Shown: piece by piece, positions 1 to 27,124 of the stretch
Layout: the number at the start of each line of letters is the position of its first letter
How positions within the stretch are numbered: position 1 is the stretch's first letter
Virus record (IMG/VR): IMGVR_UViG_3300045988_020586
DNA length: 64,000 bases
Source of the DNA: a virus
Reading direction: 5' to 3' (one strand)
Notes under the pieces: model-generated
Seen by the model: the letters and a program-made list of their open reading frames with translations, nothing else
The model's database searches: none
What the model was told of the DNA's origin: nothing
Translations under genes and position numbers: made by a program

Positions 1-1483
1 CTTTCTTTTCTATCAGTCTCGGATCTCCAGATTGAGAGTATCCTTTGCGAACACCAAAGTAATTGTTCACGTCGTACTGATAAAACGACTCGTAATCATC
101 GGATTCGAATGTCAACTGGGTTAATTGCTCAACTTCCTTAATTGCATCGGCTATTGCGAAGCGGGCGGATTTGTCAGCAATGTAGACGACACCATCTGTA
201 TTGACTTGTACAATCTTACAATTCAATTCTAGAAGCTTATCCACTAACATAAGTAGTATAAGTTGCCCATTTATACGTATCTTGTATACGTTAAGTGGAT
301 CATATGCCCAGCTACTTTCTTGTTGCATCTTTCCGGTAAGAGCATTAAGAGCCTGTTTGAACGCCTTAGACTTTAATAACTCTCCATTACGTTTGGCAGC
401 TAACCGCTCCTTGTATAGAGCGTTGTACACATTCCAAAAATCTTCTCCTAAGTGAACCGGAAACCAATGGTTTATAATGGCTAACGAAGGATACATAGAC
501 GTAACGTCGGAGTGTCCTATAAATTGTTCATCTGTAGGTTTGTAGACTCTAGGTTCGTTGATGGTGTGTATACCACCTTCTCCTATAGAGTAGCAAATGT
601 TTGAGAGAACGAACTTCTTCTCATAGTTTTCTTGTTTCTTATCAGACTTACTTGCGTTGCAAGTAGCATTCTTTACATCCAATAAGACTTCTTTCAACTT
701 TGGATTAGAATATTGTATGAATGGGAGTATAATGTCACCTAAACGAATGTTTCCGACTTTTCGAGTACGAGTTTTTAGCTCGTCTTTTGTTGTGTTGGTA
801 ATGTCTAAAACTGTGCGCAAGAGTATTTCCTCTCCAAATCGTACGCCACTCATTGACAGTGCATCAAACCCCCATTCTTTTTCAACTTCAAGACGTAGTT
901 CTACATCTTCTTTTACTTTGTTAAGCAAAGCTTCAGTAGCATCTACGTCGTTCACATTATACTCTATCATAGCATCGATATTGCATTCTTCTATCTGCAT
1001 ATCAAAGTTACCTTCGTACTCTTGCACATTTGGCATATGTAAAAGTATTTCGATTTCTTTTAAGCTTTTCTGTTGCTTAGCACTATAGAGCATCAACATA
1101 AGATCAAACGAATAAAAGTAATTTGCATATTTGTATTGTTTTATCTTATCAATATTTCCTGTTTTTTCCGAACTTATTATTTCTTTACTAAGATAATACA
1201 GAGAACTACAAATTCTCGAGTATCCTAGTCGCTTCATTCTATTATAGAAACAGATAATATAGTTTATGATTATATCATCATAGTGCTTATTGTTATATCC
1301 GCACATTATATGTTCTGTTCTATTTGTATAGAAGAAGTCAACTAATTCTTTTAGTTGATTTTTTCGACAGGATATCTCGAATTTATATAGGTTATGATTC
1401 TCTGAATCTTTACAAGTACAATGAAAACAGTTTGGAAAAACTTCTATGTCATATAGAACTACTGGTCTTTCCTTTACTATCAT
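1..1483 (-). CDS. Family B DNA polymerase, N-terminal ~494 codons (gene continues past window start)
   Basis: Reverse frame is open from ATG 1483..1481 to position 1; it is missing from the ORF track because it has no stop in the window. Own translation shows MIVKERPVVLYDIEVFPN (ExoI-like), GYNNKHYDD (ExoII-like), DVTSMYPS (motif A) and VQVNTDGV (motif C). Confidence 0.8.
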   Translation of the reverse strand, partial: MIVKERPVVLYDIEVFPNCFHCTCKDSENHNLYKFEISCRKNQLKELVDFFYTNRTEHIMCGYNNKHYDDIIINYIICFYNRMKRLGYSRICSSLYYLSKEIISSEKTGNIDKIKQYKYANYFYSFDLMLMLYSAKQQKSLKEIEILLHMPNVQEYEGNFDMQIEECNIDAMIEYNVNDVDATEALLNKVKEDVELRLEVEKEWGFDALSMSGVRFGEEILLRTVLDITNTTKDELKTRTRKVGNIRLGDIILPFIQYSNPKLKEVLLDVKNATCNASKSDKKQENYEKKFVLSNICYSIGEGGIHTINEPRVYKPTDEQFIGHSDVTSMYPSLAIINHWFPVHLGEDFWNVYNALYKERLAAKRNGELLKSKAFKQALNALTGKMQQESSWAYDPLNVYKIRINGQLILLMLVDKLLELNCKIVQVNTDGVVYIADKSARFAIADAIKEVEQLTQLTFESDDYESFYQYDVNNYFGVRKGYSQSGDPRLIEKK

Positions 1484-1485
1484 AG

Positions 1486-1558
1486 TAGTTCTAACCGGAT
1501 TCGAACCGATGACCTCCGGGTTATCTACCCGGTGCTCTGGCCACTGAGCTATAGAACT
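1486..1558 (-). tRNA. tRNA, nominal anticodon GAT (Ile), with non-canonical A at position 33
   Basis: Reverse complement folds as a cloverleaf: acceptor AGTTCTA/TAGAACT, D arm GCTC-AGTGGCCA-GAGC, anticodon arm CCGGG-TAGATAA-CCCGG, T arm ATCGG-TTCGAAT-CCGGT. 73 nt, no encoded CCA. Confidence 0.75.
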
Positions 1559-1767
1559 GACCCCGTCGGGTCTGCATGACATACACGATATGTGCGGACG
1601 CTGATTGATGTTTTACGTCTTTCGGTACCTTTCTCGCTGCCACATATCAGTACCACATGTTGTCCCTAGTGAGGGTTTGCACCTCGCAGTCATATCCTTT
1701 CGGAGCACACTAGGGTGACCAGTGGTGTCCTGGTCTATTCCATTAACAGTAGGGAAGTTCGTATAAT
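1559..1767. ncRNA. ORF-free structured spacer between CDS 1768..2430 and the tRNA
   Basis: No ORF. Nested complementarity: CCCTAGTG (1664-1671) with CACTAGGG (1708-1715), GACCAG-TGGTGTC-CTGGTC, GTCTGCA/TGCGGAC. Confidence 0.3.
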
Positions 1768-2430
1768 CTAAGCCGCCATTCGCATTTTATTTGCGTTTGG
1801 CAACAGAATACGTCCTGTCTTCTTGCGATGGTCTTTAAGGTTTGTACAAACAAGATTACTGCGTTTTGCCTTTACCTTATTTGTCTCTTTACGAGCCATC
1901 TTCATGACTTTACTGTGTTCTGGAAGTTTGTTTACGCCTCCATACTTAGCAGTTTCGCCATTATCTTTTATCTGAGCAATTTCTTGCTCGTGGAACAACT
2001 CGTCAGTAGAAGAGAACCTACCAATAAGTTGTAATTTGTCATATTTAGCGACAACTAAGTCTCTAATACGTTCTTCAGCCGCGACTCTCTCTGCCTCCCA
2101 AACCGGGAATTGCTGCGAGTAGAATAAGTCGTCTTTCTTAACCGGACATGGGTTCTTTCGTTCCCATTTCTGCAGCTTGTGCTGAACATAGCCTTCCATG
2201 AGCTCGATGCGGTTAAGCTTTGTAACCTTTCTGCGAGATTCAATTTTGATTGAATTACGCTTGAGCAGTACGAACCAAGGTCTCTTACGAGAAAGACCGT
2301 GGATGCAATGTTCTTTACAGAACTTAGAAGTAGTTCCGTGAGACTTGTTAAAGTCCTTAAGCCACTTCTCTTTAGTGTCACGATAAGTTTTAACATAATC
2401 GTCCAAATATTGATTATTCTGGGTATTCAT
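1768..2430 (-). CDS. hypothetical protein (220 aa)
   Basis: ORF track; ATG start checked; stop codon is TAG (plus-strand CTA at 1768-1770). Confidence 0.7.
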   Translation of the reverse strand: MNTQNNQYLDDYVKTYRDTKEKWLKDFNKSHGTTSKFCKEHCIHGLSRKRPWFVLLKRNSIKIESRRKVTKLNRIELMEGYVQHKLQKWERKNPCPVKKDDLFYSQQFPVWEAERVAAEERIRDLVVAKYDKLQLIGRFSSTDELFHEQEIAQIKDNGETAKYGGVNKLPEHSKVMKMARKETNKVKAKRSNLVCTNLKDHRKKTGRILLPNANKMRMAA

Positions 2431-2447
2431 AACGTTGTCTCCTATAA

Positions 2448-3437
2448 TTAAGCTGCCTGTTTAGCTGACTTTTGTTTAATTTCCTTAACCTGTGTAGGCT
2501 TCTTGTTTACAGCCTTAGCCTTAACCTTAAGCCCACGACGAAGCTTACGTCCCTCGGCCTTAGATCCGTGACTGAAGTTGTACGTGTTCTTCTCAAGGGT
2601 CTCCTTAGCCTTCTTCTTAGCTCTACGGAGATTATAGAAGTTAACACTAGCATTCTTAGAACACTCGATAGTATGAGGATCACCTCCATTCTTGTGCTTA
2701 TTGTGGTTGCTTGCAGATACGTCTATACTAGCCTCATTAAATGGAGACTTACTATCAGAACGATACTGATAGAACGTAGCGTTACCCACAAGGTCACGCA
2801 GTTTTTCTACCACGTTTGCTGGCACATCCTTAAAGAATGCTGTAGAATTGGTAATACATGCAGATTTAATTCCGCAGTCTTTTACCAACTTCTCAAGTTC
2901 TCCCTTCTTCTTCAGAACGGAGTCGCACACAACTGTTATATTGTATACAGTAGCGTTGTCCCACTGTTTCTTTGCGATGTCTACTACCTTCTTGGTGTCA
3001 GCATCATTGAGACGCATTCGCTTGCATCGACGGGTAATTGATGCGATATGACGAGCCTGAGCGACATTGCGACGCTCTTCCTGCTTCTTCAAACGCTCCT
3101 CCAGAGTGATTTTAACAGGTCCTGAAGCCTTTGTCTTCTTGGAGTCGATCAACTTATCCATGATGCTCTTTTTACGCGCCTGACGAGCCTCTGCGCGAGC
3201 CTTAGAAGCAGCATACTTAGCCTGCTCCTTCTCGGCTTTAGCCTTCTTCTTAGCTGCCTTGAGTTCAGCATGCTTCTTAGCCTTCTCTGCATCAGCAGCA
3301 CGACGCTTCTTAATGTTCTCTATTGTCTTATTAGCAGCATTAGACTCTTCCTTCTTAGCTGCCTCAGCCTTAACTGGTGTAGTTCCTATCTTAGCCTGAA
3401 CCTTCTTGAGGTTCTTCTTATTATTCTTCTTAGACAT
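2448..3437 (-). CDS. hypothetical Lys/Ala-rich basic protein (329 aa)
   Basis: ORF track; ATG start; TAA stop. Long KKAKAEK-type N-terminal half and basic C-terminal tail; visibly biased codon usage. Confidence 0.75.
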   Translation of the reverse strand: MSKKNNKKNLKKVQAKIGTTPVKAEAAKKEESNAANKTIENIKKRRAADAEKAKKHAELKAAKKKAKAEKEQAKYAASKARAEARQARKKSIMDKLIDSKKTKASGPVKITLEERLKKQEERRNVAQARHIASITRRCKRMRLNDADTKKVVDIAKKQWDNATVYNITVVCDSVLKKKGELEKLVKDCGIKSACITNSTAFFKDVPANVVEKLRDLVGNATFYQYRSDSKSPFNEASIDVSASNHNKHKNGGDPHTIECSKNASVNFYNLRRAKKKAKETLEKNTYNFSHGSKAEGRKLRRGLKVKAKAVNKKPTQVKEIKQKSAKQAA

Positions 3438-3562
3438 AATCTTGATAATTTAATGTGTTAATAATGTTGTTTTTAAGGCAAGGGATTCCTTATTTGTGGT
3501 TCGTGTAAGCCTCGATCTTACTCCTTTCGGCGACCCTTGTATTTGTCTCGAACCTATAGCAT

Positions 3563-4111
3563 TTAAACTGCGAGATCCATCTCGAACTTATCTGCAATAG
3601 TATCCTTAATCTCAATAGAAGTCTCATTGTTAAACTTCTCGAGATTGGCGTCAAACTTATTTGCTAGTAGCTGCTGCTCGTGAATAAGCTGTGCAATCTT
3701 AGCTGATGAGAACACCTCACGCTTAGGCATAGCCTTCAATCCCTTCTTTGCCTTAGTTGATGGATCAAGTGTCTTGATCATCTTGAGCTGAGCTATAGCC
3801 TCCTTTGCCTCACATGCTGCAAAAATGCTATAGTTATTTGTCTTCTTAAAATCCTCATAAGAGAATGTAGTAGTACCTGTGTTAAGAGCTACCAAAATAC
3901 CCTTAATCATAATACGCTTCTCACTAAGCTGTACAATCTGATTATACAAACTCTTGAGATCTAAGCCAGAACCCTGCTTTGCTGCAATTGCCTTCTTAGA
4001 CATCAGGTTCTCTGCTCGAATGATTCGCCAATACTTATTGATAGTAATATCAATGTTCTTGCGAATTGTAATAATGTTTGCTGAGTTCAATTTAATTGAT
4101 TTCTTATTCAT
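3563..4111 (-). CDS. hypothetical protein (182 aa)
   Basis: ORF track; ATG start; TAA stop; co-directional with neighbours. Confidence 0.7.
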   Translation of the reverse strand: MNKKSIKLNSANIITIRKNIDITINKYWRIIRAENLMSKKAIAAKQGSGLDLKSLYNQIVQLSEKRIMIKGILVALNTGTTTFSYEDFKKTNNYSIFAACEAKEAIAQLKMIKTLDPSTKAKKGLKAMPKREVFSSAKIAQLIHEQQLLANKFDANLEKFNNETSIEIKDTIADKFEMDLAV

Positions 4112-4193
4112 ATAGTTTGATTAAAATTAAACAATTTACTTGAATCAGCCACTTACCTAGCTCCTATACTACATATTACTGTAATAAAGGATA

Positions 4194-4270
4194 AAAGGGT
4201 ATCCATTGGTAATCCTACCCCGCAGGGCGGATTACCTATTCTCCGCAGAGAACTTTTAAGGATGCCCTTT
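4194..4270. ncRNA. Three-helix intergenic RNA/DNA structure
   Basis: 11-bp closing helix AAAGGGTATCC/GGATGCCCTTT (one T.G) encloses GGTAATCC..GGATTACC (tip CCC-CGCA-GGG) and TTCTC-CGCA-GAGAA. Confidence 0.4.
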
Positions 4271-4388
4271 AATATAAACTAATAATATTGTTATTGTATT
4301 TTCTTGCAAACAATAACGGTAACTTCATGCATGAATGTGTACTCTTCTGCGCACAGATTGTACACCATTCCCGCAGGAATGTTTCTGT

Positions 4389-4973
4389 TTATGGCATTAC
4401 TCGTTTAGCGTTTACAATTCCATACTCCAACTCAATCATTGGTTTACCAATGCAGTCTTTCACCTGCAAAACTTCTTTACGTCCGTTGATATTGATAACA
4501 ATTTTATCAGGAAACTCTTGCTGAGCGTTAAGCCTTGGCCCTGACACCCGGGACCCCGCAGGGTCCGCTCCTACGCCATCAGCAATGCTAGAATTCTGAC
4601 ATACTTTTGTCGCAACATCATACAGTCGTTCTACGACCCAGTTAAAGTTTTTGTCTTTAACTCCTTTCATCACAATTTCTTGCGATAGTCCTTCCATAAT
4701 GGCTTTTTGGTTAAGCCCTGTAGAAAGACTCACTAGTGCATCCCATACCTTAAGAGCGAAGCTCTCAAATGGTAAGGTTTGCTCACAGCCGATTATCTTG
4801 TTCCAAAAATGGAATCTAGTTGAACCAAGAGTAATACTACCATCATCGTTAATGGTATAGATCTTGTATTTCTCTGTATGGTCCAACTTTTCATAAACGG
4901 CTGCCTTAATTTTCGGTTCTGAGAGCATTACTGCTATAAGCTTAACGCTCTTTTCTGTTAAAACAGCCTCCAT
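4389..4973 (-). CDS. hypothetical protein (194 aa)
   Basis: ORF track; ATG; TAA. Contains an internal GC-rich hairpin GGACCC-CGCA-GGGTCC at 4551-4566. Confidence 0.7.
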   Translation of the reverse strand: MEAVLTEKSVKLIAVMLSEPKIKAAVYEKLDHTEKYKIYTINDDGSITLGSTRFHFWNKIIGCEQTLPFESFALKVWDALVSLSTGLNQKAIMEGLSQEIVMKGVKDKNFNWVVERLYDVATKVCQNSSIADGVGADPAGSRVSGPRLNAQQEFPDKIVININGRKEVLQVKDCIGKPMIELEYGIVNAKRVMP

Positions 4974-4977
4974 GAAC

Positions 4978-5571
4978 TTATGCTATCTTATCAGCTGGTT
5001 TAGAATCTGCCTTCTGACGCTCGTAGTCGGCAACGATCTTCTCGTTTGCTGCAATGGCAGACAAACACTGAGCCTTAGCCTTATTAGCCTGCTCAATAAT
5101 TGCCTCAAGGCGAGCGATCTCACCACGGTTAAGATCGTTAAGAATGCCACTCAAATCCTTAGGATCTGAGAACACAGCCTTAGAGTTCTTGTCCTTAAGA
5201 GCGTTCTGAACTGCCTCCTCTGTGGTCTCACCAAACTTGGTGCTGTTCTCACCGAGAGGGATATCAATCTGGTGCTCGGTGCCCTCATTGAGACGGCAAA
5301 CGACATCACCGATTGCATTCTGCTTGGTTGCCATAGACTCAATCGTAATATAGCCGATCGCAAAACGGCGAGGTGAACGATTGAGGACAAGGTTTACATT
5401 GGAGCCCTGCTTAGCCTGCTCCAAAACCTTATCATGATCTGGGTTGAACATACGGGTCTGAGGAATAAATACGTCCTGACCGAACATTCTGCCACCGAGC
5501 AAGCTCAGTGGGGTACGATTTGACTTAATTGTAGTTTCCACGATGTTTACATTAATTTCTGACATAATCAT
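4978..5571 (-). CDS. hypothetical protein (197 aa)
   Basis: ORF track; ATG; TAA; 4 nt from the downstream gene; biased codon usage. Confidence 0.75.
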   Translation of the reverse strand: MIMSEINVNIVETTIKSNRTPLSLLGGRMFGQDVFIPQTRMFNPDHDKVLEQAKQGSNVNLVLNRSPRRFAIGYITIESMATKQNAIGDVVCRLNEGTEHQIDIPLGENSTKFGETTEEAVQNALKDKNSKAVFSDPKDLSGILNDLNRGEIARLEAIIEQANKAKAQCLSAIAANEKIVADYERQKADSKPADKIA

Positions 5572-5581
5572 ATCCTTTTTG

Positions 5582-5608
5582 ATATCGTTATTGATTAACT
5601 AACGATAT
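5582..5608. promoter_or_regulatory. 9-bp perfect hairpin 11 nt upstream of the start of CDS 4978..5571
   Basis: ATATCGTTA-TTGATTAAC-TAACGATAT. Confidence 0.35.
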
Positions 5609-5666
5609 GATTTTTAAAATATGGTGTATTTTGGCTACACCTTTGCCGTTGTTTATTGAATAAAGC

Positions 5667-5691
5667 AACGCTGATACGAAGATACTCGGTT
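5667..5691. repeat. Family A conserved-loop hairpin, copy A0
   Basis: Loop CTGATACGAAGATACT is closed by a short bulged stem (AAC.G/C.GTT). The 15-mer TGATACGAAGATACT is shared with 13143, 13314 and 13412. Confidence 0.5.
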
Positions 5692-7101
5692 ACTACTTTG
5701 CTTACTTAGTTTTCTAAAGAAAGTTCTACTATTGTAGACGCTTTTCATAGACTTAGCTACACTATTTCTACTACAACAATAGGGTAGTAGACTTGTAGCA
5801 GGAATTACGTACGTATGACGTAATTAACATTTACTGGATTATCCAGGCCCATCGTCTAAAGCTTTGAATGCTTTCTTTGCATAATCAAATGCTGAACTAT
5901 TTTCTGCTATTTTGTTCACGTTTTTTCTAACTTAACTATTCTAATCTTCGTTGGTGAAATTTTGCAGAGCAACTAACACTCATAGAATCTTAGAATCCTT
6001 ATAACCCACGAAAATATGTAGAATCTCGGTCGTATTTCCCTTACTATACTTACAAGATATTCCTACACGATTGTTATTAAAGCAGATGATCTCTACTGCT
6101 AACTTAAAAGCGACTGTCAGCTAGGTCTCCTTACTGCGGTACTCGGCTTATGGCATGTACCCAGCGGTTGGTTATCGGAATGTCTCAGGATCAAACCCAT
6201 CACAGACTTTACGGCTTTTTACATCTTTGCTGATGTTTGCAATTTTTCTGTACCGGTATTACTACCTCCTATTTATAGTGCACGAATATTGGGAATTCAA
6301 CCCATACATTTCATCTTGTCACCCACTTATAAACGTAATATACATGTATAGAGACAGTATACACATATAATATACACAGTCGTTTTACAACATAGAATAT
6401 AAGCTGCCCATCAATTTCCTGTATTGCTTCGAACCTTTGTGTTTACATATACTGTTGCACAGTATACTTTAGCATGGTTGGCATATCGGTTGGCACTCGA
6501 TTTCTTTACCTCAAGTCCTTACTTACAACGTAAGATACACTCTATAAAGGGACATCAATTTTTTGTTAAACATGTTACATTTTAAACTTTCTAGATTTTC
6601 ATAGTCTATATCTTTTGCATACAACATACGCATATATAATATACCAGCTTACTACTCTGTAGAGACTATATAATATTGCATATCATAATACAAATAGACT
6701 ATTGGTCTAAATTGTTTTGGATGAAAGTGGAGGTCAAATGATCCTGGCTGGATATATCTCGAATCAACTTTCTACCTATTTTGCTATTTCTTATTCTAGG
6801 ATAGCTTTCCATCAATTTTCTTTGACTGTAACGGAGTCATCGATCATAGTCTCATGAACGATTTAATTTTCATGGAAATTGGCTGTAAGTTCGGATTGCC
6901 TAACATCCTAATTGCAACTGGAATAGATTTTCACCGCGATCTTCACCCGCGTACGATACTCCCGTAGAGCTTCGATTAAGGGACTGCCCAACCCTTGTGC
7001 TTGTTTTACTTTTATATACCGCATAAACAAGAAAAGCCTGGCGGTCTACCATGAACTCAGACGTCTTACACCTCATCCCTGGCACCCCTTCAATGGAGTT
7101 G

Positions 7102-7118
7102 TGACGAATCGAACGTCA
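7102..7118 (-). other. Orphan tRNA T-arm-like hairpin
   Basis: Reverse strand reads TGACG-TTCGATT-CGTCA. I could not build an acceptor, D arm or anticodon arm around it. Confidence 0.4.
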
Positions 7119-7731
7119 AGGACTATATGCCAACGTATTCACCATACGTCCCGTGAGTATTATCCTCACGATATTGCGTCTTAGATAAATTTTTCGGCCT
7201 TTATACTAGCTTTGGACACTAGAAACACTACCTACGGCTTAATAATACTTCTATATTGTTTGGGATATCCTCGGTTCTTCCAGCACCATGCACCATACCA
7301 TGTATGCAATTCTGTTCACCTACTGGGGACCAATATAGTTCATCTCGTGTAACGTTCGTGTATGCTTAGTATTATCACATACAATTCCGATACGGTTCAT
7401 TATGCCCTTCTTGGGACTTATGCGTTTTTAGATTACACAGCCTCATCCAGCTTGTCTCCAGACGGTTCTCACAAGTCCAGCTGTGTAATCTATAGGAGTT
7501 GATACAACGCTACTCCTACCTATATCAAACCGTTTCAATGTTTGATACATTTCATCCTACCTTTTGAGTGATCTCGCCCTGCAAGACAGGGTTAACATAT
7601 TCTCGGATCCAGTTTAATTTGATTGAGTTTTTCTTCTAGCTCCTTCGCGGGGGGATGTTCCAGAATAGTACGTAGACTAATGGGATCTACTATATGTACT
7701 TACCTAATTATAGCACATAGGGTTCTTATGT

Positions 7732-8133
7732 TTACTTATGTACATTAGAGGCGATTTGGATATAATCACGGAGCTCTCCCTTACGAATGGTAGAGTTGTG
7801 ATTAGTGGAGTCGACCTTTTCTCCAGGTTCCATAATATACAGAAGTGGTACATACGACGTATCTGTCTTCTTAATTATGGTGCGTTTAACAATTGCCTTT
7901 GCAGGCAACTGTTTATGATTACAAGGTACAGGCACTTTTACCTTAACGGTATCATGCACTGTATCAGGATTAGCACGATTCATCTGACCAAACAAATGGT
8001 CCATTGGTTGCGATACAGTAGATGCTGCTACTGTTTGCACTGTCGTCGGAAGGGGCACGTTCTTAAGATCTGCAATATTCATGCCGATCGCAAGAAATGC
8101 TGCACCTAGCAACGTTGTTACTAATTTTTTCAT
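7732..8133 (-). CDS. hypothetical secreted/membrane protein (133 aa)
   Basis: ORF track; ATG; TAA; N-terminal MKKLVTTLLGAAFLAIG looks like a signal peptide. Confidence 0.7.
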   Translation of the reverse strand: MKKLVTTLLGAAFLAIGMNIADLKNVPLPTTVQTVAASTVSQPMDHLFGQMNRANPDTVHDTVKVKVPVPCNHKQLPAKAIVKRTIIKKTDTSYVPLLYIMEPGEKVDSTNHNSTIRKGELRDYIQIASNVHK

Positions 8134-8234
8134 ACTTTGATAGTTAAATTATTTGCGTTCACTTTGCCATTGGATATCAAAGGCTCTTCTAACGCGACCA
8201 ACTAGTTGTGAACCAGCTTTCTTAATTGGCCGTA

Positions 8235-9746
8235 TTATTTTTTTACCTGAGCCTTAGCCTTACCCTTGGCTTCCTTCTTCTTGTTCTCTGCTGCCTTCTT
8301 ATCAGCTGCTTCCTTAGCAGCCTTGGCAACAGCCTCTTCCTCGGCCTTGATCTCTTCGTCGGTCTTAAATGCCAAGTCGATAATATTCTCCTTAGCATAA
8401 CCTACGAGCGGATCAGAAGGATTACGGAACAGATTAGAGATGATACCTGCATACTGAGTAGCGTTATCCAGCATAGAATCAGACTTAACCTTAGCCATCA
8501 TCTCTGGAACTACATCGCGATAGTATGCACGCTTAATAGAGATAACAGTCTTCTTAGCGAAGCTATTACCATCCAAGAAGTTCTTCTTCAGGTTCTCAAC
8601 AAACTCACCTGGAGCTGCAATAACTGCTGCAGTAGCCTTATCGGCAAATGCGATATTCTTGTTAGCTGTATCGATATGCGCCTGAACACGCTCCTTCTCA
8701 GGAAGCTTGTTCTCTTCCTCAATCATAATCTTGCCCTTAGAGCGAACCTCATCAGCACTGATAAGAACAAGACATCTTACAGCGTCTGCAATCTGATTAT
8801 CGGTATACTTACATACACCGGTGTTCTTGTCTGTAGAATGGTCAAGAAGCTCACAGAACGCAGATACAGGAGATCCTGACGTAGCGGTAACGTTGAAGAG
8901 GTGAGCGCCAATTCCATAAGTGAGAGTTCCGACACGACCCGTAAGGCTAACAACCTCACGAAACACGTCATGAAAATTCATGTTGTTGACACGCTCAAGA
9001 TTACTCTTAGCAGAAGCAAGAGCCTTCTCAGCGTTTTCCTTGTACTTCTTGTCCTTGGTGTCCTTAAGTGTCTTCTCGGCGGACTCGATCGCACGCTTAG
9101 CTTCGATAGAGCGATATGCCTTATAGAAGTTCACGCACTGCATAATGCTGTCCATAAGCTTAGAATCACGATTCATAGCCAGGAAACCAGACAACGCCTC
9201 CTTAAGCTCTTCCTCATCCTTGATCTTTGTAGGATCAAAGACCTTACCTGCTGTTGCAGCACGAGCCTGTGCGTCTTTGTCAAGATTCTTTGCAGTCTCT
9301 TCTGAAACTTGTACAGCTGCACCTGTAACCTCAACTGCTTCAGCGTCTTCGGTCGAAGGCAAGAGCTTAGCCTCGTCAAAGTTTACACCAATCTCTTTAA
9401 GAGCTTCCTTAAGCTCTGGGAGCGCAGACTTGCGAATTACTAACGCAAAGTCACTAGAACCATACTTAACCTCATTGCACATGCATACAGCAATGCCAAG
9501 AGCATTAATATGATTGATCTTGTCGATGGCTCCCTGCGGGATACCAGTATGCTCTGCAGCGTTCTCATCCAAGAAGAAACGATCATGAGCCATCTTCAAC
9601 AAGTCTACCTGATGGTTACGGTCCATGCTTGACCCACCTGTTGTTGTGAGCATAGCTGCAGCCTCAACAGCTGCATTTACACCGTTATCACCATTGTTGT
9701 TATTCTGGGCAACCTTAACGTTACCCTTGTTCTTTTTATTAGCCAT
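8235..9746 (-). CDS. hypothetical protein (503 aa) with Lys/Ala/Glu-rich C-terminal tail
   Basis: ORF track; ATG; TAA; strong codon bias. The antisense ORFs 8226..8879, 8901..9305 and 9145..9513 are mirror artefacts. Confidence 0.8.
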   Translation of the reverse strand: MANKKNKGNVKVAQNNNNGDNGVNAAVEAAAMLTTTGGSSMDRNHQVDLLKMAHDRFFLDENAAEHTGIPQGAIDKINHINALGIAVCMCNEVKYGSSDFALVIRKSALPELKEALKEIGVNFDEAKLLPSTEDAEAVEVTGAAVQVSEETAKNLDKDAQARAATAGKVFDPTKIKDEEELKEALSGFLAMNRDSKLMDSIMQCVNFYKAYRSIEAKRAIESAEKTLKDTKDKKYKENAEKALASAKSNLERVNNMNFHDVFREVVSLTGRVGTLTYGIGAHLFNVTATSGSPVSAFCELLDHSTDKNTGVCKYTDNQIADAVRCLVLISADEVRSKGKIMIEEENKLPEKERVQAHIDTANKNIAFADKATAAVIAAPGEFVENLKKNFLDGNSFAKKTVISIKRAYYRDVVPEMMAKVKSDSMLDNATQYAGIISNLFRNPSDPLVGYAKENIIDLAFKTDEEIKAEEEAVAKAAKEAADKKAAENKKKEAKGKAKAQVKK

Positions 9747-9814
9747 TTTGATAATGTTTTAAAAATGTTAAATACTAAAATTAATTAATAAAATCCTGGG
9801 CAACTAACTTAGAT

Positions 9815-10210
9815 TCAACTTGTGTCGAATATAAAGTTCGTTTTTAACCAATCTTGTGGAGGCTTAGTGAGCACTTTAATATGCCCATCTTCACTCAAGT
9901 TAAGCGCAGCGACAGTATCTGCTACAACTGTATCCTTACCTGCTGGTTTTATCTCATTACATGTACCAGCGCCCTCTGAGGGTTCCAAAGCCTGAAGTGA
10001 GCACGTCGGTGCCAGCATGGGAGTTGTAGAAGATTTAACTGTGCTGGCTTCACTTTTATGGTCAACAAAGGCACTGTTGACCATGCTCTTACCAGTAAAA
10101 CCAAGCAAGAGACTCACAAGAATGATCCAGAACAACTTGTTACTCTTGTTGTATCTTGCGAAACCAAGAGCGATAAAGATTGAGAGAATCAATAATAAAA
10201 GTGAAGTCAT
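9815..10210 (-). CDS. hypothetical membrane protein (131 aa, two N-terminal TM segments)
   Basis: ORF track; ATG; TGA; begins 4 nt after the sigma-factor stop. Confidence 0.65.
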   Translation of the reverse strand: MTSLLLLILSIFIALGFARYNKSNKLFWIILVSLLLGFTGKSMVNSAFVDHKSEASTVKSSTTPMLAPTCSLQALEPSEGAGTCNEIKPAGKDTVVADTVAALNLSEDGHIKVLTKPPQDWLKTNFIFDTS

Positions 10211-10214
10211 TTTG

Positions 10215-10772
10215 TTAAACTTTTAAGTTATTTTTAATTTTCCTACGAGTGCGGCTTAATGCTGCTTTTATAGTGCCTGTAGGAGTTTTTAGCACTTTGC
10301 TAATTTCGTCAACTGATAGATCCTCTACGTAAAACAAATTAAAAATCTTTTGTGTCTTTTTAGGGAGCTTTTCAAACTCCTTTAAAAGAAATTCGTGTTC
10401 AAGAAGATTGACAAGATCTTCTTCTTCCGAAGAACTAGTTAATTCTACGGGTAGTCGGCCCATATCTTCTCCTAATTCCATAGATTTCTCCTTTATCTTT
10501 CGTAAATAATCTATAGCCGTTCTATTAGCTATAATTCTCAGCCATCCGCCAAAAGACGAATAATCTGTGAATGTCGAGAGTTTCTGGTGAACCTTAAGAA
10601 ATACAACATTTGTAAGATCTTTAGCTTCATCCATATCATTCACGTAATGAAAGAGTACGTTGTCAACGAACTCCTTATAACGGTTAAACAATTTATTAAA
10701 CGCAAGCTCATTTCCCTTCTGAGCTTCTTTTATGGTCTCAATCTCAGATTGAGTGATACGCTGATACTCCAT
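10215..10772 (-). CDS. ECF-type sigma-70 family sigma factor
   Basis: 185 aa. Region 2-like DLTNVVFLKVHQKL...FGGWLRIIANRTAIDYLRK and region 4-like LSVDEISKVLKTPTGTIKAALSRTRRKIK. Confidence 0.75.
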   Translation of the reverse strand: MEYQRITQSEIETIKEAQKGNELAFNKLFNRYKEFVDNVLFHYVNDMDEAKDLTNVVFLKVHQKLSTFTDYSSFGGWLRIIANRTAIDYLRKIKEKSMELGEDMGRLPVELTSSSEEEDLVNLLEHEFLLKEFEKLPKKTQKIFNLFYVEDLSVDEISKVLKTPTGTIKAALSRTRRKIKNNLKV

Positions 10773-10801
10773 ATTGTGGAGTAGGGGAGATCTCTCTCAC
10801 C

Positions 10802-11218
10802 CTACCCCTGATAAAACGGAAGGTCATATACCATCTTTTGACGGTACAATGACCAAACGTTGTTGACGAAATTGTTGAAAAGAATCAATTTTAAATCCTT
10901 TCCGCCGGTCTTCATTTCTACTTTTTCAAGTAGTCCTGAACCAATACGCATACGAGTTGTAAGTGTTTTGAACTTCATAGAATTGGTTAGGACTATTGTT
11001 TTCATAATCCAATCACCAACTCTACGCAAATGTTCATTACAACAGTATTCGTATATACAATCTTCGTCTAGGCTATCTCCAGCACAGAATACGTGCGCTC
11101 CATCAGTGAAGCCCTTTTTAAGGCGATTGTGGAACCAGTTAATCACATCTTCTACGTTGTCACTTTCATAGCCTAACAGACTAGCTCTGTAAATTAGCAT
11201 TTTAGGGAAATACTCCAT
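10802..11218 (-). CDS. hypothetical protein (138 aa)
   Basis: ORF track; ATG; stop codon is TAG (CTA at 10802-10804). Confidence 0.7.
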   Translation of the reverse strand: MEYFPKMLIYRASLLGYESDNVEDVINWFHNRLKKGFTDGAHVFCAGDSLDEDCIYEYCCNEHLRRVGDWIMKTIVLTNSMKFKTLTTRMRIGSGLLEKVEMKTGGKDLKLILFNNFVNNVWSLYRQKMVYDLPFYQG

Positions 11219-11230
11219 TTTCTATTTTGT

Positions 11231-11752
11231 TTAATTAAATGTTTTCTTAATAAACTTAGAAAAATCTTCAAGATATTCATCTAGAAATCCAGCTTTCTCT
11301 GACAAGAAATTATCAAATAGTGCCATATTACCGCATTTACATGATATTTTGTAATAGTTATCTAGGAATTTATAGTTATTTTGAAACCATACAACCCAAC
11401 TATTAACCCATATCCAAAATGCGTATTCTCCAGCATTGAAAGTCTTGTTAATACATTCTAAGTTTATAGAGTCTGCAAAATTAAAATTTTGAGACCCCTC
11501 GTGGATTCCAAGAGCTTTTCTTATTGACGCATTCTTTTCATCTGTTCTAGGTCTCCCTTTTCCAGTGTTGTAGATTGCTATATTCTCTTGATATACACGG
11601 TCTATCCATCGCGTTTTAACGGCATACTTAATTCTTTCGTGTGGCTTCTTACCAATATTTGATAATCTACCAAACTCTGTACACCATTTAAACGCGAGGT
11701 CGACAACATAAGGACACCTGTCCTTTATCATCGCTTTGTATCCCTTTGTCAT
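11231..11752 (-). CDS. hypothetical protein (173 aa)
   Basis: ORF track; ATG; TAA. Confidence 0.7.
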   Translation of the reverse strand: MTKGYKAMIKDRCPYVVDLAFKWCTEFGRLSNIGKKPHERIKYAVKTRWIDRVYQENIAIYNTGKGRPRTDEKNASIRKALGIHEGSQNFNFADSINLECINKTFNAGEYAFWIWVNSWVVWFQNNYKFLDNYYKISCKCGNMALFDNFLSEKAGFLDEYLEDFSKFIKKTFN

Positions 11753-11761
11753 AACTAATAG

Positions 11762-11820
11762 GAAGAAGCTGGGGAATCGAACCCCAGACCCAAACCAAAA
11801 GGCGACGGTACCAACTTCTT
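11762..11820 (-). other. tRNA-like minihelix (acceptor + T arm only)
   Basis: Reverse strand has acceptor AAGAAGT/GCTTCTT and T arm TGGGG-TTCGATT-CCCCA. Only 27 nt lie between them and no D or anticodon arm can be drawn. Confidence 0.4.
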
Positions 11821-11967
11821 TCTTCTCTCCACTTAGGTAGGAAGCACCTAGACTAAACTTACGCTACGCAAGTATAGTCTACAATGTTATTTACATTGCC
11901 GTTTAATTTATAGTATAGTGCTTAATGTATTTATCTCCTCTGTCTGTCAAAACCAAACACGCCCGTG

Positions 11968-11990
11968 TAGGCAGTTTTACAACATGCCTA
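11968..11990. repeat. Family C conserved-loop hairpin, copy C1
   Basis: TAGGCA-GTTTTACAACA-TGCCTA followed by GGTTG. Confidence 0.55.
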
Positions 11991-12047
11991 GGTTGCCACG
12001 TTTTCGCGAACAAAAATGTGATCTGTCATACATAGACACAAACAGAA

Positions 12048-12180: not shown

Positions 12181-12798
12181 ATGGAACAGATAAAGAAATA
12201 TATGCAAAACAGAAAGTTAATAACTTTCGTTTGTGATTGTTGTGGAAAAGAAGCTCAAAAACCTCTTTCCGAATACAACAGAAACAAGAAACTTGGTAGG
12301 AAGAATTTTTGTAGTAGAAGTTGTGCAATTCGTTATGCTAATAAAAATAAATTACATACATTTACAGATAAATGTAGAGAACATCTTTTAAGTATTTGCA
12401 ACAATCAAATAGACGAATATACCGATTTTAGATATATCCTTAGAAGTGTCTATAAAAGATTTAAAGAAGTAGATATAGATTTAGAGTATCTAAAACAACT
12501 TTGGGAGACACAAAAAGGAATTTGCCCTTATACTGGTATAAAATTAAAGCTTCCAACATATAAAAGCCATAACTTCTATTTTGATTGTGCATCTTTAGAC
12601 AGAATAGATTCTTCTAAAGGCTACGTTAAAGGAAATGTTCAATTCATATCATTACCTATAAATTATATGAAATCTACTAAATCAGATATTGAAATCAGAC
12701 AATTTCTTAAACAAATTTCTTCTTACACTTCACATTTCTGCGAAGATGAGACTATCTCTTCACCTAAAGAGGTGTTGGGCGCTCGAGCTGGTAATTAA
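12181..12798 (+). CDS. HNH-family homing endonuclease-like protein, free-standing and opposite to the surrounding operon
   Basis: First ATG inside track ORF 12145..12798 (which starts at TTG). N-terminal CxxC...C...C zinc-finger-like segment; C-terminal CPYTG...ASLDRIDSSKGYVKGNVQFISLPINYMK. Confidence 0.6.
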   Translation: MEQIKKYMQNRKLITFVCDCCGKEAQKPLSEYNRNKKLGRKNFCSRSCAIRYANKNKLHTFTDKCREHLLSICNNQIDEYTDFRYILRSVYKRFKEVDIDLEYLKQLWETQKGICPYTGIKLKLPTYKSHNFYFDCASLDRIDSSKGYVKGNVQFISLPINYMKSTKSDIEIRQFLKQISSYTSHFCEDETISSPKEVLGARAGN

Positions 12799-12832
12799 GA
12801 AGACTATACTTCTCCAGTAGTCGTTGCACTTT

Positions 12833-12850
12833 CTTGTGGTGTACCACAAG
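12833..12850 (+). terminator. Hairpin downstream of the HNH gene (weak terminator candidate)
   Basis: CTTGTGG-TGTA-CCACAAG, 7 bp, no U-tract. Confidence 0.25.
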
Positions 12851-13136
12851 CTTAGCTCAGGGTTAGCATGAACAATACTAGCTTTGAGCTATTATTGTTT
12901 TTAGCCTTCCTTGAATTCACCCAATATGGGCTCGGTAAGAACCCCTGTCCAAACAGATTATTTCATACACACTGTACATTTGTTTTGTAAATGTCCTGAT
13001 GATCAGTCAGAACATTTGATTTAAACCACTTTAGGTGCGTTCTAAGGCATTTTTGCGACACTTGTGGTTAATTACTCCACTCGGTGACATACTCTGCCTC
13101 AGAATGCATTAGAACATGGTTGAAAATATATAGGAA

Positions 13137-13164
13137 TCCTCATGATACGAAGATACTTAGAGGG
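13137..13164. repeat. Family A conserved-loop hairpin, copy A1
   Basis: Stem TCCTC/GAGGG (one T.G); loop A-TGATACGAAGATACT-TA. Confidence 0.55.
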
Positions 13165-13304: not shown

Positions 13305-13337
13305 TTCTCATCGTGATACGAAGATACTTGATGAGAA
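13305..13337. repeat. Family A conserved-loop hairpin, copy A3
   Basis: 8-bp stem TTCTCATC/GATGAGAA; 17-nt loop GTGATACGAAGATACTT. Confidence 0.6.
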
Positions 13338-13406: not shown

Positions 13407-13431
13407 GTACGTGATACGAAGATACTTGTAC
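13407..13431. repeat. Family A conserved-loop hairpin, copy A4
   Basis: 4-bp stem GTAC/GTAC; identical 17-nt loop GTGATACGAAGATACTT; 12 nt from the stop of CDS 13443..13937. Confidence 0.55.
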
Positions 13432-15232: not shown

Positions 15233-15303
15233 TTTGATAATTTATTAGAGATTTAACAAATGTTAACTATCCGGGTTTTAAAGATTCACGGAATCATCTA
15301 TTG

Positions 15304-15376
15304 TGATACATATGGGACTCGAACCCATGACCCATAGATTAAAAATCTATTGCTCTACCAACTGAGCTAATGTATC
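15304..15376 (-). tRNA. tRNA-Lys (anticodon TTT)
   Basis: Reverse complement: GATACAT-TA-GCTC AGTTGGTA GAGC-A-ATAGA TTTTTAA TCTAT-GGGTC-ATGGG TTCGAGT CCCAT-ATGTATC-A. Confidence 0.85.
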
Positions 15377-15378
15377 AA

Positions 15379-15467
15379 AAGAAGGAATACACACATACAC
15401 CTAGTATTCGTTTAAGTATGCCCTCCTACAGCGGTTACCAGGAACGCCGCACCACCTCTTCCTTCTT
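15379..15467 (-). ncRNA. Stem-closed ~89-nt element between two tRNAs (not a canonical tRNA)
   Basis: 9-bp terminal helix AAGAAGGAA/TTCCTTCTT with internal helices GCGG/CCGC and CATAC/GTATG. No T loop or anticodon arm. Confidence 0.35.
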
Positions 15468-15468
15468 G

Positions 15469-15542
15469 TGGACCAGCTAGGGTTTGAACCTAGGACCTCC
15501 AGATTATGAGTCTGTTGCTCTAACCGACTGAGCTACAAGTCC
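15469..15542 (-). tRNA. tRNA with anticodon CAT (Met, or Ile2 if lysidine-modified)
   Basis: Reverse complement: GGACTTG-TA-GCTC AGTCGGTTA GAGC-A-ACAGA CTCATAA TCTGG-AGGTC-CTAGG TTCAAAC CCTAG-CTGGTCC-A. One T.T mismatch in the acceptor stem. Confidence 0.8.
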
Positions 15543-18242: not shown

Positions 18243-18369
18243 AATTTTGATAATTTAAACATTATTTACTTGTATAGGACTACTTCTCACCTATACTTGA
18301 GTTTTGTGTTCCATCTGTAATTCGGTTTCCCTTTGGAGGCTTTGGACTCCCTACGGCTACATTAAACAC

Positions 18370-18618
18370 TTAGGGTTGATGCAACTCAACCCTTATGTTT
18401 TTAATTAATCTAAAATAGCACCAATGTAAGTTATGAAGACAATACTTACACCAGTCTTTTTGTTCATGAAAATTTAAATCGCACATGTAACAATCTGTAA
18501 AACTAGATTTATTTTTCACAATTCTAAATACATTCTTACAAATTGTAATCAATTGCCCTGGTTTATAATTCTTATGAGTACCAGATGTCTTCTGTGTGGT
18601 CTTCTTTTTCAAATTCAT
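18370..18618 (-). CDS. small Cys-rich protein (82 aa)
   Basis: ORF track; CxxC-type spacing; N-terminal half resembles CDS 16191..16385. Confidence 0.55.
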   Translation of the reverse strand: MNLKKKTTQKTSGTHKNYKPGQLITICKNVFRIVKNKSSFTDCYMCDLNFHEQKDWCKYCLHNLHWCYFRLIKNIRVELHQP

Positions 18619-18626
18619 TCATACAC

Positions 18627-18920
18627 TTACTTGTTAATTAAGTTGTCTACTTTGGATTTTGCTTCTAAGTAATCACTACCATAATCTGTTGCAAGATCTG
18701 TATCCATAAGATCAAGATTATGTGTTCCATTGAGAGAGTCAAGCAATGTTTCGACACATGTATAGTATCTTTCATATGCTTCTATCTTTTTCTCTGCTTT
18801 TTTGCCCTTACCTGTATGGTAATTTGACATAAAGCAGGCACCCACAAAGCAGCCTAATACTGCTCCTACTAACAATAAATTCATGTTGTCCATAAAACGA
18901 TGTACTTTATTCTTTTCCAT
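18627..18920 (-). CDS. small membrane protein (97 aa)
   Basis: ORF track; TM segment LLLVGAVLGCFVGACF. Confidence 0.6.
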   Translation of the reverse strand: MEKNKVHRFMDNMNLLLVGAVLGCFVGACFMSNYHTGKGKKAEKKIEAYERYYTCVETLLDSLNGTHNLDLMDTDLATDYGSDYLEAKSKVDNLINK

Positions 18921-18952
18921 ATATATAATTATTGATTAATATACATAATAAA

Positions 18953-18982
18953 AACGTGCCTATCTTCACAGACCAGCACGTT
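18953..18982. repeat. Family B conserved-loop hairpin, copy B1
   Basis: Stem AACGTGC/GCACGTT (7 bp); loop CTATCTTCACAGACCA (16 nt). Confidence 0.65.
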
Positions 18983-19460
18983 GAGCATCGAAATAAAACC
19001 TACGTCACTTAGTAAAAGATGATGTAAGAAAATCGGTATGGTAAAAAACAAATTGAAGTGGTTACTGGACTCGAACCGTCGCTATGTTGCGCTTTACTAT
19101 AGCCAAGTACAATATCCATATAATGCATTTGTACATAGTATACCCTCTTGCTTTAGCAAGTGTATAATAACCACTATCCGTCTCTCCAGATTGTCATAGA
19201 GACTGGGTCTACATTTGACAGATTGCACCTTTTGCAAATAGGCTGTAGTTACCGTATCTCAGTTTTACACGTAAACCTATTGCCTATAGACGACTCACCC
19301 TCTGTGTTCTACAATCGACATCTTATAGCTTTGCAAGTACCATAAGCACGTGTTGTAGTCATGGGCTTGGGACCATGAACGCCACATTACTGCCTACGAT
19401 TTATCACGTTAGCGTAGGCGCTCCGTCATCCTAGTTTATATACCGCATGAGATAACGGTT

Positions 19461-19492: not shown

Positions 19493-19609
19493 TGAGGTCT
19501 ATTCGCGCTTTGAGTAATGAATCAGACTACACCATGATGCAACATGTGTAGTTTCGTCTAGGTCTCATCAGTGATGATTTTAGACTCTCCCTAGCTGAGT
19601 TTAAATAAA

Positions 19610-23087: not shown

Positions 23088-23174
23088 CTTTTTGGATTAT
23101 TTTGTCTGTATTCTTTTATAGCTTTCCCTATAAAGGTACACGCTTCGATAGGCGTGAGTACAATTGGTTTTGGG

Positions 23175-26658: not shown

Positions 26659-26689
26659 CGACTTTTTGAATTCATTTGTTATCATATAA

Positions 26690-27115: not shown

Positions 27116-27124
27116 ACACAATAT

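Follow-up and report, generated by a model that had tools for sequence, protein, structure and literature searches.

The locus described here is a gene-free tract of 2.16 kb (positions 5572-7731) in the IMG/VR virus record IMGVR_UViG_3300045988_020586, of which a stretch of 64,000 nucleotides (nt), hereafter the window, was analysed. The source genome was placed by megablast and blastn in the Crassvirales, family Suoliviridae, subfamily Oafivirinae, genus Burzaovirus, with nucleotide identities across the tract of 94.5% to cr7_1 and 92% to cr124_1. The tract sits inside a long block of minus-strand genes: on its transcription-upstream side are the genes for an extracytoplasmic function (ECF)-type sigma factor (10215-10772) and for proteins of 131, 503 and 133 amino acids (aa), and on its downstream side a gene for a 197-aa protein and more small genes, with the DNA polymerase beyond, as seen in the near-identical phage cr7_1. 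A preliminary description, made from the letters and open reading frames (ORFs) of the window, had suggested one or more large non-coding RNAs (ncRNAs) at this place, a suggestion now strongly supported by conserved position, purifying selection and covariation, the last also in a held-out subfamily. The tract is very probably the gene for a very large (~2.0-2.3 kb) structured ncRNA, read from the minus strand and co-oriented with the surrounding early/replication-module genes.

Position, length and sequence blocks of the tract are all conserved in at least two subfamilies of Suoliviridae. A gene-free gap of 2.0-2.2 kb was found between the same two genes in every annotated Oafivirinae genome of the phage collection (Burzaovirus, Cacepaovirus, Chuhaivirus, Bohxovirus, Buhlduvirus and the unclassified Dulem virus 42). 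As the alignment of the 197-aa protein has no conserved stretch, the 503-aa neighbour served as the bait for fetching 80 Oafivirinae loci from IMG/VR, all of which (n = 80/80) were matched at full length by the tract profile (2014-2353 nt); clustering at 90% identity yielded 31 representatives covering the same range of lengths. Between genera the flanking proteins share 25-36% (197-aa protein) and 23-30% aa identity, and the tract 50-61% nt identity with blocks above 80%; it was still detected by blastn in genera whose flanking coding DNA gave no detectable match. Conservation is blocky, with the most conserved block across genera at 5572-5611 (81% column identity), the least variable part among 36 Burzaovirus variants at 6292-6411 (6.7% variable sites), the least conserved part at 5612-5850, and poorly conserved linkers at, for example, 6772-6811, 6092-6131 and 5612-5651.

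A tblastn search with the 503-aa neighbour also reached the Loutivirinae genomes cr4_1, cr56_1 and cr53_1, which have the same gene order and unannotated gaps of 2147, 2152 and 2125 nt, respectively. The Oafivirinae profile gave colinear sense-strand matches to the Loutivirinae gaps (E = 1e-21, 8e-15, 2e-11 and 9e-7), five conserved motifs occurred within them in the same order, and 75 Loutivirinae tracts (2082-2152 nt) were obtained from the three reference genomes and IMG/VR contigs. Synteny and covariation had been named in the preliminary description as a check, and both position and structure proved to be conserved across the two subfamilies. Since the tract and its structure carry over to Loutivirinae, the RNA is at least as old as the Oafivirinae/Loutivirinae split.

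Genomes and metagenomes were scanned with a 24-nt degenerate pattern taken from the highly conserved 6999-7046 block. At least 120 metagenome contigs carried it, most of them 95-105 kb long and several named as human-gut. Among the GTDB species representatives, real homologs were found only on phage-sized contigs of ~100 kb in Segatella copri, Prevotella, Bacteroidaceae and unclassified metagenome-assembled genomes (MAGs); the other pattern matches were attributed to chance, and the scan gave no sign of a chromosomal bacterial homolog. The hosts are likely Segatella or Prevotella, on which the UniRef name of a relative of the downstream protein also bears. Whole Suoliviridae genomes had been binned into MAGs (L123 and L135, Segatella copri, 101.5 and 101.0 kb; L128, L132 and L134), which is a hint to the host and also a contamination issue for those MAGs.

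That the tract has no protein-coding capacity, as first described, was borne out: its open frames are those of random sequence, and its relatives show no codon structure. In six frames under the standard code the longest open stretch was 85 codons, against a mean of 92 (5-95% range 67-130) in mononucleotide shuffles. With TAG read through, the reverse frames reached 64, 84 and 69 codons, reproducing the earlier maximum of about 85, and the plus strand held open stretches of 146 and 136 codons, which are annotated as 'hypothetical proteins' in cr7_1 and a Bohxovirus. These plus-strand ORFs were rejected as genes, as their frame is lost among relatives 92-97% identical, their substitutions have no period of 3 and their gaps are not multiples of 3. 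No conserved sense-strand ORF of at least 60 codons was present in the 31 diverse homologs (standard code, TAG or TGA read-through), and the short antisense overlaps showed neither period-3 variation nor gaps of 3n. Among the 36 Burzaovirus variants, variability by codon phase was flat in the tract (0.18/0.16/0.17) versus 0.21/0.08/0.62 in the adjacent gene, 30 of the 34 indels in the tract were not multiples of 3 (mostly 1-2 nt), and variable sites made up 17% of the tract but 30% and 21% of the two flanking genes and 62% of third codon positions. With fewer variable sites, no codon phase and no conserved ORF, the tract is thus non-coding and under purifying selection.

These results bear directly on whether the tract is a decayed pseudogene, or a real gene concealed by recoding, frameshifts or introns, which we regard as scarcely credible. 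TAG recoding and introns are known features of delta-group crAss-like phages (PMC7886860), group I introns occur elsewhere in the window, and TAG read-through does open the two long plus-strand frames. However, the period-3 pattern was nowhere to be seen, the indels disregard the codon, the plus-strand frames switch among near-identical relatives, intron families gave no match up to E = 10, and a tract less variable than its coding neighbours is the opposite of decay; nor did any relative of the two subfamilies encode a protein at the syntenic position, where a normal protein would, by the preliminary description, have been grounds for abandoning the ncRNA. Spurious coding sequences (CDS) inside the tract were encountered in public records, namely cr7_1 gp52 (L001 7306-7788, +), called even with in-frame TAG codons, Bohxovirus ECCNAKDA_00150 (L005 3327-3833, +) and about 11 tiny CDS in Dulem virus 42 (L008 3163-5171).

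Base pairing was assessed with RNAalifold on an E-INS-i alignment of the 31 representatives from which gappy columns had been taken out. The consensus energy was -237.5 kcal/mol for the minus (gene-sense) strand and -205.4 kcal/mol for the other strand, compared with -75.4 +/- 7.2 kcal/mol in 12 column shuffles that kept conservation and gap classes (z ~ -22), and 138 pairs with compensatory double changes were counted versus about 11 in the shuffles. Without a span limit the fold comprised 260 pairs in 56 helices spread from 7689 to 5583, with 147 compensatory pairs. A second count used a MAFFT alignment of the 5' third (7695-7047), for which plain input predicted 26 pairs, and input with the gappy columns removed 87 pairs in 30 helices, the structure supplied to the count. 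It was paired in 90.1% of the cells, versus 38-44% when the 3' partners were slid by 1-3 columns; both sides had changed in 60 pairs (409 cells), versus 26-37 pairs (60-106 cells) in the slid controls; and none of 500 shuffles reached the observed value on any of five measures.

The Oafivirinae structure was also transferred to six held-out Loutivirinae representatives, in which 60.7% of the cells were canonical versus 38-44% in slid controls, 183 cells differed from the Oafivirinae consensus on both sides of the pair, and at least 80% pairing was seen in 11 helices. Mutual information with average product correction (APC) over all 2 million column pairs was, with 31 sequences, mostly phylogenetic noise and gave a weak signal; of the top 50 pairs, 8 were antiparallel-stacked and none parallel-stacked, with a canonical fraction of 0.70 compared with 0.37 for random pairs. 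Selection maintains base pairing in about 50-60 helices on the minus strand. Between the helices lie near-invariant unpaired motifs (GGUCUCAUUAGCC, GAGAAUAUGU, CAAAAGGUAGGAUG, GAGAACCGUCUGG, GACCGCCAGGC, CGGUAUAUAAAAGU, GAGUGCCAACCGU, GUGGGUGACAAG, AGCCGUAG and UUCGAUAA), and such a combination of selected helices and near-invariant unpaired motifs is typical of an RNA with an elaborate tertiary fold.

The strand was read from the ratio of G-U to A-C pairs, an A-C pair being a G-U pair on the other strand. This ratio was 816:228 for the sense structure, 582:332 for the structure predicted on the antisense strand and 241:125 for the 144 pairs predicted on both strands. For 6650-7620, the minus strand gave a single-sequence minimum free energy (MFE) z-score of -1.81, a fold as good being reached by 1 of 20 shuffles, and the plus strand one of -0.43. 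As the G-U asymmetry and the single-sequence z-scores agree, the minus strand, on which the neighbouring genes also lie, is the one from which the RNA is read.

The features of the tract are collected in Table 1. All the perfect hairpins listed in the preliminary description are present, except that the stem within 7429-7492 has 13 bp rather than 11; the hairpins do exist, but their load, which had been called packed, does not go beyond chance by MFE z-score. The CCCTG/CAGGG hairpin and the repeats formerly placed at 6601-6702 can likewise be seen, the latter as an inverted repeat, and the T-arm-like hairpin at 7102-7118 turned out to be real, conserved and covarying.

Table 1. Coordinates of the tract, its flanking genes, its predicted structural elements and related features.
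Feature	Position	Strand	Evidence and remarks
Candidate giant structured ncRNA gene, ~2.1 kb	5572-7731	-	Homologs, covariation, G-U asymmetry; covarying conserved core ~7689 to ~5583, ends approximate
Upstream flanking gene, 133 aa, hydrophobic N-terminus	7732-8133	-	Syntenic small gene(s) in all relatives
Downstream flanking gene, 197 aa	4978-5571	-	Always directly after the tract
5' hairpin with 7-nt near-invariant loop, consensus GGUCUCAUUAGCC; here UAGAU-CCCAUUA-GUCUA	7673-7689	-	Covariation; helix 7689-7683/7678-7673, 92% paired cells, 3 compensatory pairs; loop invariant in alignment A3
Long hairpin closed by ACUUGAUCC/GGUAGGAUG, enclosing covarying hairpin 7573-7595 (CCCUG/CAGGG; visible at ~7576-7595)	7554-7608	-	Covariation; 7608-7605/7557-7554, 99% paired, 3 compensatory pairs; inner helix 7595-7588/7580-7573
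Hairpin GGAGU/ACUCC with conserved 12-nt loop AGCGUUGUAUCA	7493-7518	-	Stem covaries: GGAGU, GGAUC, GGGUU, GGGUA
13-bp perfect helix enclosing near-invariant GAGAACCGUCUGG (7470-7458)	7429-7492	-	Alignment, motif conservation
Two adjacent covarying hairpins, 7171-7151 and 7150-7132 (GGACGUAUGGUGAAUACGUU)	7132-7171	-	Pair counts (helices 24 and 26): 88.7% and 99.5% of cells paired, 5 and 4 pairs changed on both sides
T-loop-like hairpin GACG-UUCGAUU-CGUC, sense GACGTTCGATTCGTC	7102-7118	-	Helix 7118-7114/7106-7102, 4 compensatory pairs; loop consensus GtTcgAtTC conserved
Near-invariant GACCGCCAGGC (7046-7036), then 11-bp helix 7032-7021/7009-6999 with loop CGGUAUAUAAAAGU	6999-7046	-	Covariation; helix 93% paired, 4 compensatory pairs
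Central domain, hairpins 6548-6505, 6534-6518, 6467-6447, 6363-6345 and 6327-6277	6277-6572	-	Consensus fold; unpaired motifs GAGUGCCAACCGU (near-invariant, 6498-6486) and GUGGGUGACAAG
Candidate long-range helices of the central domain	6572-6567/6275-6270; 6556-6550/6409-6402	-	Consensus fold
Further candidate long-range helices	7394-7386/6179-6170; 7045-7041/6215-6211	-	Consensus fold
3' domain, multi-helix junction and hairpin 5892-5879	5713-5892	-	Covariation; junction helices 5875-5871/5717-5713, 5862-5859/5743-5740, 5840-5836/5807-5803 and 5799-5793/5762-5756 with 5, 2, 5 and 6 compensatory pairs; hairpin with 4
Highly conserved hairpin UAUCGUUAGUUAAUCAAUAACGAUA, then UCAAAAAGGAU, directly before the downstream start codon	5583-5607	-	Conservation, consensus fold
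Inverted repeat ATAGTCTAT/TAGAGACTAT	6601-6669		Present in the sequence
Perfect hairpins	5582-5590/5600-5608 (9 bp); 5803-5810/5818-5825 (8 bp); 6448-6455/6459-6466 (8 bp); 7429-7441/7480-7492 (13 bp); 7493-7499/7512-7518 (7 bp); 7523-7530/7540-7547 (8 bp)		Present in the sequence
Family A 15-mer AGUAUCUUCGUAUCA	5672-5686	-	In poorly conserved stretch between RNA core and next gene
Family A, other exact copies	13143-13157; 13314-13328; 13412-13426	-
Family A, 2-mismatch copies	10754-10768; 57397-57411
Permuted transfer-messenger RNA (tmRNA) in relatives	L066 2427-2736; L070 2152-2520; L116 1818-2250; L105 2648-3060; L088 2515-2878; L120 1489-1798
tmRNA annotated by PGAP	cr7_1 (L001 12201-12557); cr131_1 (L002 10530-10893)

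Several of these elements persist in the held-out Loutivirinae: the 5' hairpin was 97% canonical with 16 double-change cells, the 7554-7608 hairpin 100% canonical, the 7032-7021/7009-6999 helix 85% canonical with 10 double changes, and the hairpin 5892/5879 100% canonical with 18 double changes. The 7554-7608 hairpin carries the conserved unpaired GAGAAUAUGU and CAAAAGGUAGGAUG. The helix at 7429-7492 is a lineage-specific extension in Burzaovirus and a few relatives, its outer helix occurring only in the window, L088, L109 and L059.

The 5' hairpin, which lies inside a covarying outer stem (AGUAC/GUACU in the window), resembles the anticodon arm of tRNA-Met/Ile2: it has a 5-bp stem, and its 7-nt loop CUCAUUA is close to the tRNA-Met anticodon loop, CUCAUAA. 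Beside it, some relatives have an inserted GGGGUUCGAYUCCCC hairpin. In L066, L070, L116 and L105 an insertion of 60-150 nt lies just 3' of the GGTCTCATTAGCC hairpin (A3 columns ~100-250); it contains an acceptor-like strand preceded by a hairpin of T-arm type (GGGGTTCGACTCCCC or GAGGAGTTCGATTCTCCTC). No tRNA is called there by ARAGORN, and the insertion may be either a tRNA-like module or what is left of a tRNA gene that had inserted. With tRNA and tmRNA the tract thus shares the anticodon-arm-like 5' hairpin, the T-loop hairpin at 7102-7118 and, in some relatives, the inserted T-arm-like hairpin. It was nevertheless rejected as either: ARAGORN, run on the window and 14 relatives including those with the T-arm-like 5' insertion, detected no tRNA or tmRNA in the tract, the Rfam models found none, there is no cloverleaf, and loop position 37 is U.

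No known RNA family accounts for the tract. The cmscan search proposed in the preliminary description was run with Rfam 15 (4227 models), which covered GOLLD, ROOL, HEARO, group I and II introns and tRNA-like elements, as well as OLE, raiA, rRNA, tmRNA, RNase P and riboswitches; at the gathering threshold there were seven matches in the window, none of them in 5572-7731. Up to E = 10 on 5300-8000 there were chance-level matches only, the best being CRISPR-DR65 (23.8 bits, gathering 43, E = 0.87) and the other three having E >= 4. The element was not described in the full-text literature searched or in the crAss comparative-genomics paper (Yutin 2021, PMC7886860). Group I and II introns are likewise large structured RNAs, common in delta-group crAss-like phages, with two of group I in the window itself. 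An intron was rejected here, as the tract lies between two complete ORFs and not inside a gene, and Intron_gpI, group II D-V/VI and D1-D4 gave no match to E = 10; in further contrast to introns, it contains no ORF for an intron-encoded endonuclease or maturase and is far larger than ORF-less introns.

The closest parallels in kind are GOLLD, ROOL and OLE, large 'ornate' bacterial and phage ncRNAs with cryo-EM structures, whose functions are unknown (PMC12286853). Like them, the tract is longer than 500 nt, non-coding and conserved in many genomes, and has a complex, covariation-supported multi-helix architecture with many conserved unpaired nucleotides and with T-loop-like and tRNA-like sub-motifs; it is also phage-borne, as is often the case for GOLLD and ROOL. 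It differs in giving no sequence or structure match by cmscan, in its length (~2.1 kb versus roughly 0.6-0.8 kb), and in its origin from Crassvirales of Bacteroidota hosts, not from Firmicutes or rumen phages; unlike GOLLD and ROOL, homo-oligomeric cages whose genes frequently adjoin tRNA genes, it is not adjacent to tRNAs, the nearest (1485-1558 and 15303-15542) being ~4 kb or more from the tract. The tract represents a new family of giant structured phage RNA, of the large ornate ncRNA kind and of no known family, and its predicted RNA exceeds every member of that kind in size by a factor of two to four.

The ends of the RNA were considered next to the signals around them. Just past the upstream stop codon, at 7734-7707 (-), a promoter-like site has TAAACA and TATAAT at a spacing of 16 nt, with TG; it is not conserved between genera. 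A sigma-70-type promoter scan of the region gave 12 promoter-like sites against 9.5 expected, and terminator-like sites numbered 3 against 2.3 expected, neither being above chance. With no conserved intrinsic terminator, the RNA ends are likely set by processing. Most database gene calls start the downstream protein at its third residue, Met3 (195 aa, MSEINV...), so that the tract may end at 5565 and not at 5571. The hairpin at 5583-5607 is either a 3'-terminal element of the RNA or the translation-initiation region of the downstream gene.

This last point touches on whether the tract is a giant structured 5' leader or cis-regulator of 4978-5571 and genes beyond, or a stabiliser of the operon mRNA, with no function in trans. 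We consider this improbable. It would fit a tract that directly abuts the downstream gene on the same strand with no conserved terminator between them, and whose last 40 nt, the hairpin and UCAAAAAGGAU before the AUG, form the most conserved block across genera. However, conservation is lowest in 5612-5850, just upstream of that hairpin, pointing to a boundary that separates an RNA core from the initiation region of the gene, and the downstream protein evolves fast while the tract is held. We also know of no bacterial or phage leader that nears 2 kb with ~50 conserved helices and dozens of invariant unpaired motifs.

Within the poorly conserved stretch lies one copy of the family A 15-mer (AGUAUCUUCGUAUCA/AGTATCTTCGTATCA), reported in the preliminary description and confirmed here; the window holds 4 exact copies versus 0.26 expected. 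Each copy lies between short complementary arms that differ from copy to copy, for which reason family A looks like a conserved hairpin loop with covarying stems, and it may be a processing, regulatory or protein-binding signal. Three of the copies cluster in an ORF-poor stretch adjoining a group I intron.

How many RNAs the tract encodes is a separate matter. Only 5 of the 56 helices span more than 300 nt, each with 0-1 compensatory pairs, and because these nearly invariant long-range helices carry almost no covariation, one 2-kb RNA is unproven over several adjacent RNAs. A cluster of several independent structured small or medium-sized RNAs, or of processed domains, arranged head to tail is possible but on balance unlikely. 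It accords with the predominance of local helices among those supported, with the blocky conservation and weak linkers, with the family A hairpin-loop motif as a potential processing mark inside the tract, and with the two transcribed intergenic stretches reported for phi14:2 (see below). On the other hand, very divergent lineages keep the tract within 2.0-2.35 kb and its blocks in an invariant order, internal promoter-like and terminator-like sites do not exceed chance, and the candidate long-range helices are paired in 85-92% of the 31 sequences.

The strand asymmetry of G-U pairs, the multi-helix junctions and the invariant unpaired motifs over 2 kb fit a folded RNA better than an element acting at the level of DNA, whether an origin of replication, a site for packaging, or a field of promoters that the virion RNA polymerase would use as extruded DNA hairpins. 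Such an element is very improbable here, although the tract contains many perfect inverted repeats, is part of the replication module with the DNA polymerase a few kb away, and belongs to a crAss-like phage, whose virion RNA polymerase uses single-stranded or denatured DNA and early promoters without a recognisable motif. The replication origin offered as an option in the preliminary description found no support: cumulative GC skew turns at ~24-25 kb and not at the tract, no iterons or tandem repeats were present, and there is no AT-rich dip (GC 37.5% versus 37-44% in the neighbours). Both the DNA-level element and the hidden gene are thus contradicted, by the origin, codon and intron tests.

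The closest precedent for the tract, a positional analogue, lies in phi14:2, a crAss-like phage of Cellulophaga, in which the g004-g005 and g005-g006 intergenic regions have been reported as two transcribed stretches, these long intergenic regions upstream of the replication genes being expressed above most genes, early and persistently (Drobysheva et al., bioRxiv 10.1101/2020.03.07.982082). In the phi14:2 record a gene-free region of 1697 nt (2905-4601) lies between g004 and g006, where curators removed many spurious ORFs, and PolB is at 9636. Both the phi14:2 long ncRNA and the tract are thus kb-scale, gene-free and co-oriented elements of Crassvirales in the early/replication module upstream of the DNA polymerase, whereas phi14:2 belongs to Steigviridae, infects a marine Cellulophaga host, is described as having two regions, and has no conserved structure reported for it. 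None of 15 conserved tract motifs was shared in order with phi14:2 1-12000. The replication module of phi14:2 is transcribed by a virion-packaged RNA polymerase without a recognisable promoter motif, and use of such a polymerase would explain the lack of a conserved promoter at the tract.

By analogy with phi14:2, the RNA would be transcribed early and accumulate as a stable, abundant molecule. It is probably produced as part of the operon transcript, or else starts at a promoter that closely follows the upstream gene, and would then be trimmed by processing; it would fold into a large tertiary structure and act in trans as a folded particle, like GOLLD, ROOL and OLE, serving during infection as a scaffold or decoy to which factors of the phage or its host would bind. 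The tRNA-like elements (the anticodon-arm-like 5' hairpin and the T-loop hairpins) would be possible sites of contact or mimicry.

Some observations weigh against the giant ncRNA or the role proposed for it. The RNA and its ends are predictions from sequence, here and across Suoliviridae. Its single-sequence folding energy is barely better than that of shuffles, and the long-range helices consist of nearly invariant sequence. No conserved promoter was seen, and an intrinsic-terminator-like hairpin near the 3' end was present in only 4 of the 31 homologs. When phi14:2 1-12000 was compared with three Suoliviridae profiles (nhmmer --max), all the matches had E ~8, indicating that the analogy is positional only. 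The scaffold or decoy role in trans is purely inferred by analogy, and the flanking proteins give no clue to it: searches of PHROGs, Pfam and PDB sequences with the immediate neighbours returned nothing functional, and the downstream protein, compared with 5.8 billion proteins, matched only close relatives named 'hypothetical'.

Other structured RNAs were observed in these genomes. Elsewhere in the window, Rfam identified two group I introns, 12728-13020 (-) and 29316-29557 (+), with 81 and 65 bits, a RAGATH-1 hammerhead ribozyme at 19520-19601 (-) with 72 bits, and four tRNAs; with two group I introns and a hammerhead, the genome is rich in catalytic RNAs. No ORF of at least 100 codons, even with TAG read through, covers five other stretches of 375-553 nt, at 18255-18629, 18936-19406, 23131-23523, 26595-27147 and 28314-28756, some of them adjoining the hammerhead or tRNAs. 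In many Oafivirinae a permuted tmRNA in two pieces, whose tag peptides include GNSYIADYTKLAA, is encoded a few kb upstream of the tract. In this window no tmRNA was detected by ARAGORN or Rfam, though cr7_1 is ~88% identical over the region.

In the human gut virome crAss-like phages are dominant, yet most of their early genes and their strategy of host take-over are unexplained. An RNA of 2 kb takes up about 2% of a 100-kb phage genome, a major investment, and because the tract has been kept at one locus across subfamilies while the flanking proteins diverged to 25-30% identity, an important function is implied. The RNA would enlarge the small club of very large structured ncRNAs formed by OLE, GOLLD and ROOL by one that is 2.5-4 times larger, and the hundreds of natural variants in public metagenomes make it unusually well suited to cryo-EM and to modelling guided by covariation. 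A covariance model would correct the spurious 'hypothetical protein' annotations and serve as a marker for Suoliviridae. We put forward, tentatively and as a reading that may well prove too ambitious, that the tract encodes a single ~2.1-kb RNA with a defined three-dimensional architecture, universal in Suoliviridae, the delta crAss-like phages that rank with the most abundant human-gut viruses, and acting as an infection-essential ribozyme, a self-assembling particle, or a mimic or decoy of host tRNA or RNA-processing targets. If so, it would be the largest non-ribosomal structured RNA known from a bacteriophage and, together with the unrelated RNAs of phi14:2, would make giant ncRNAs a general, overlooked part of the crassvirus early programme.

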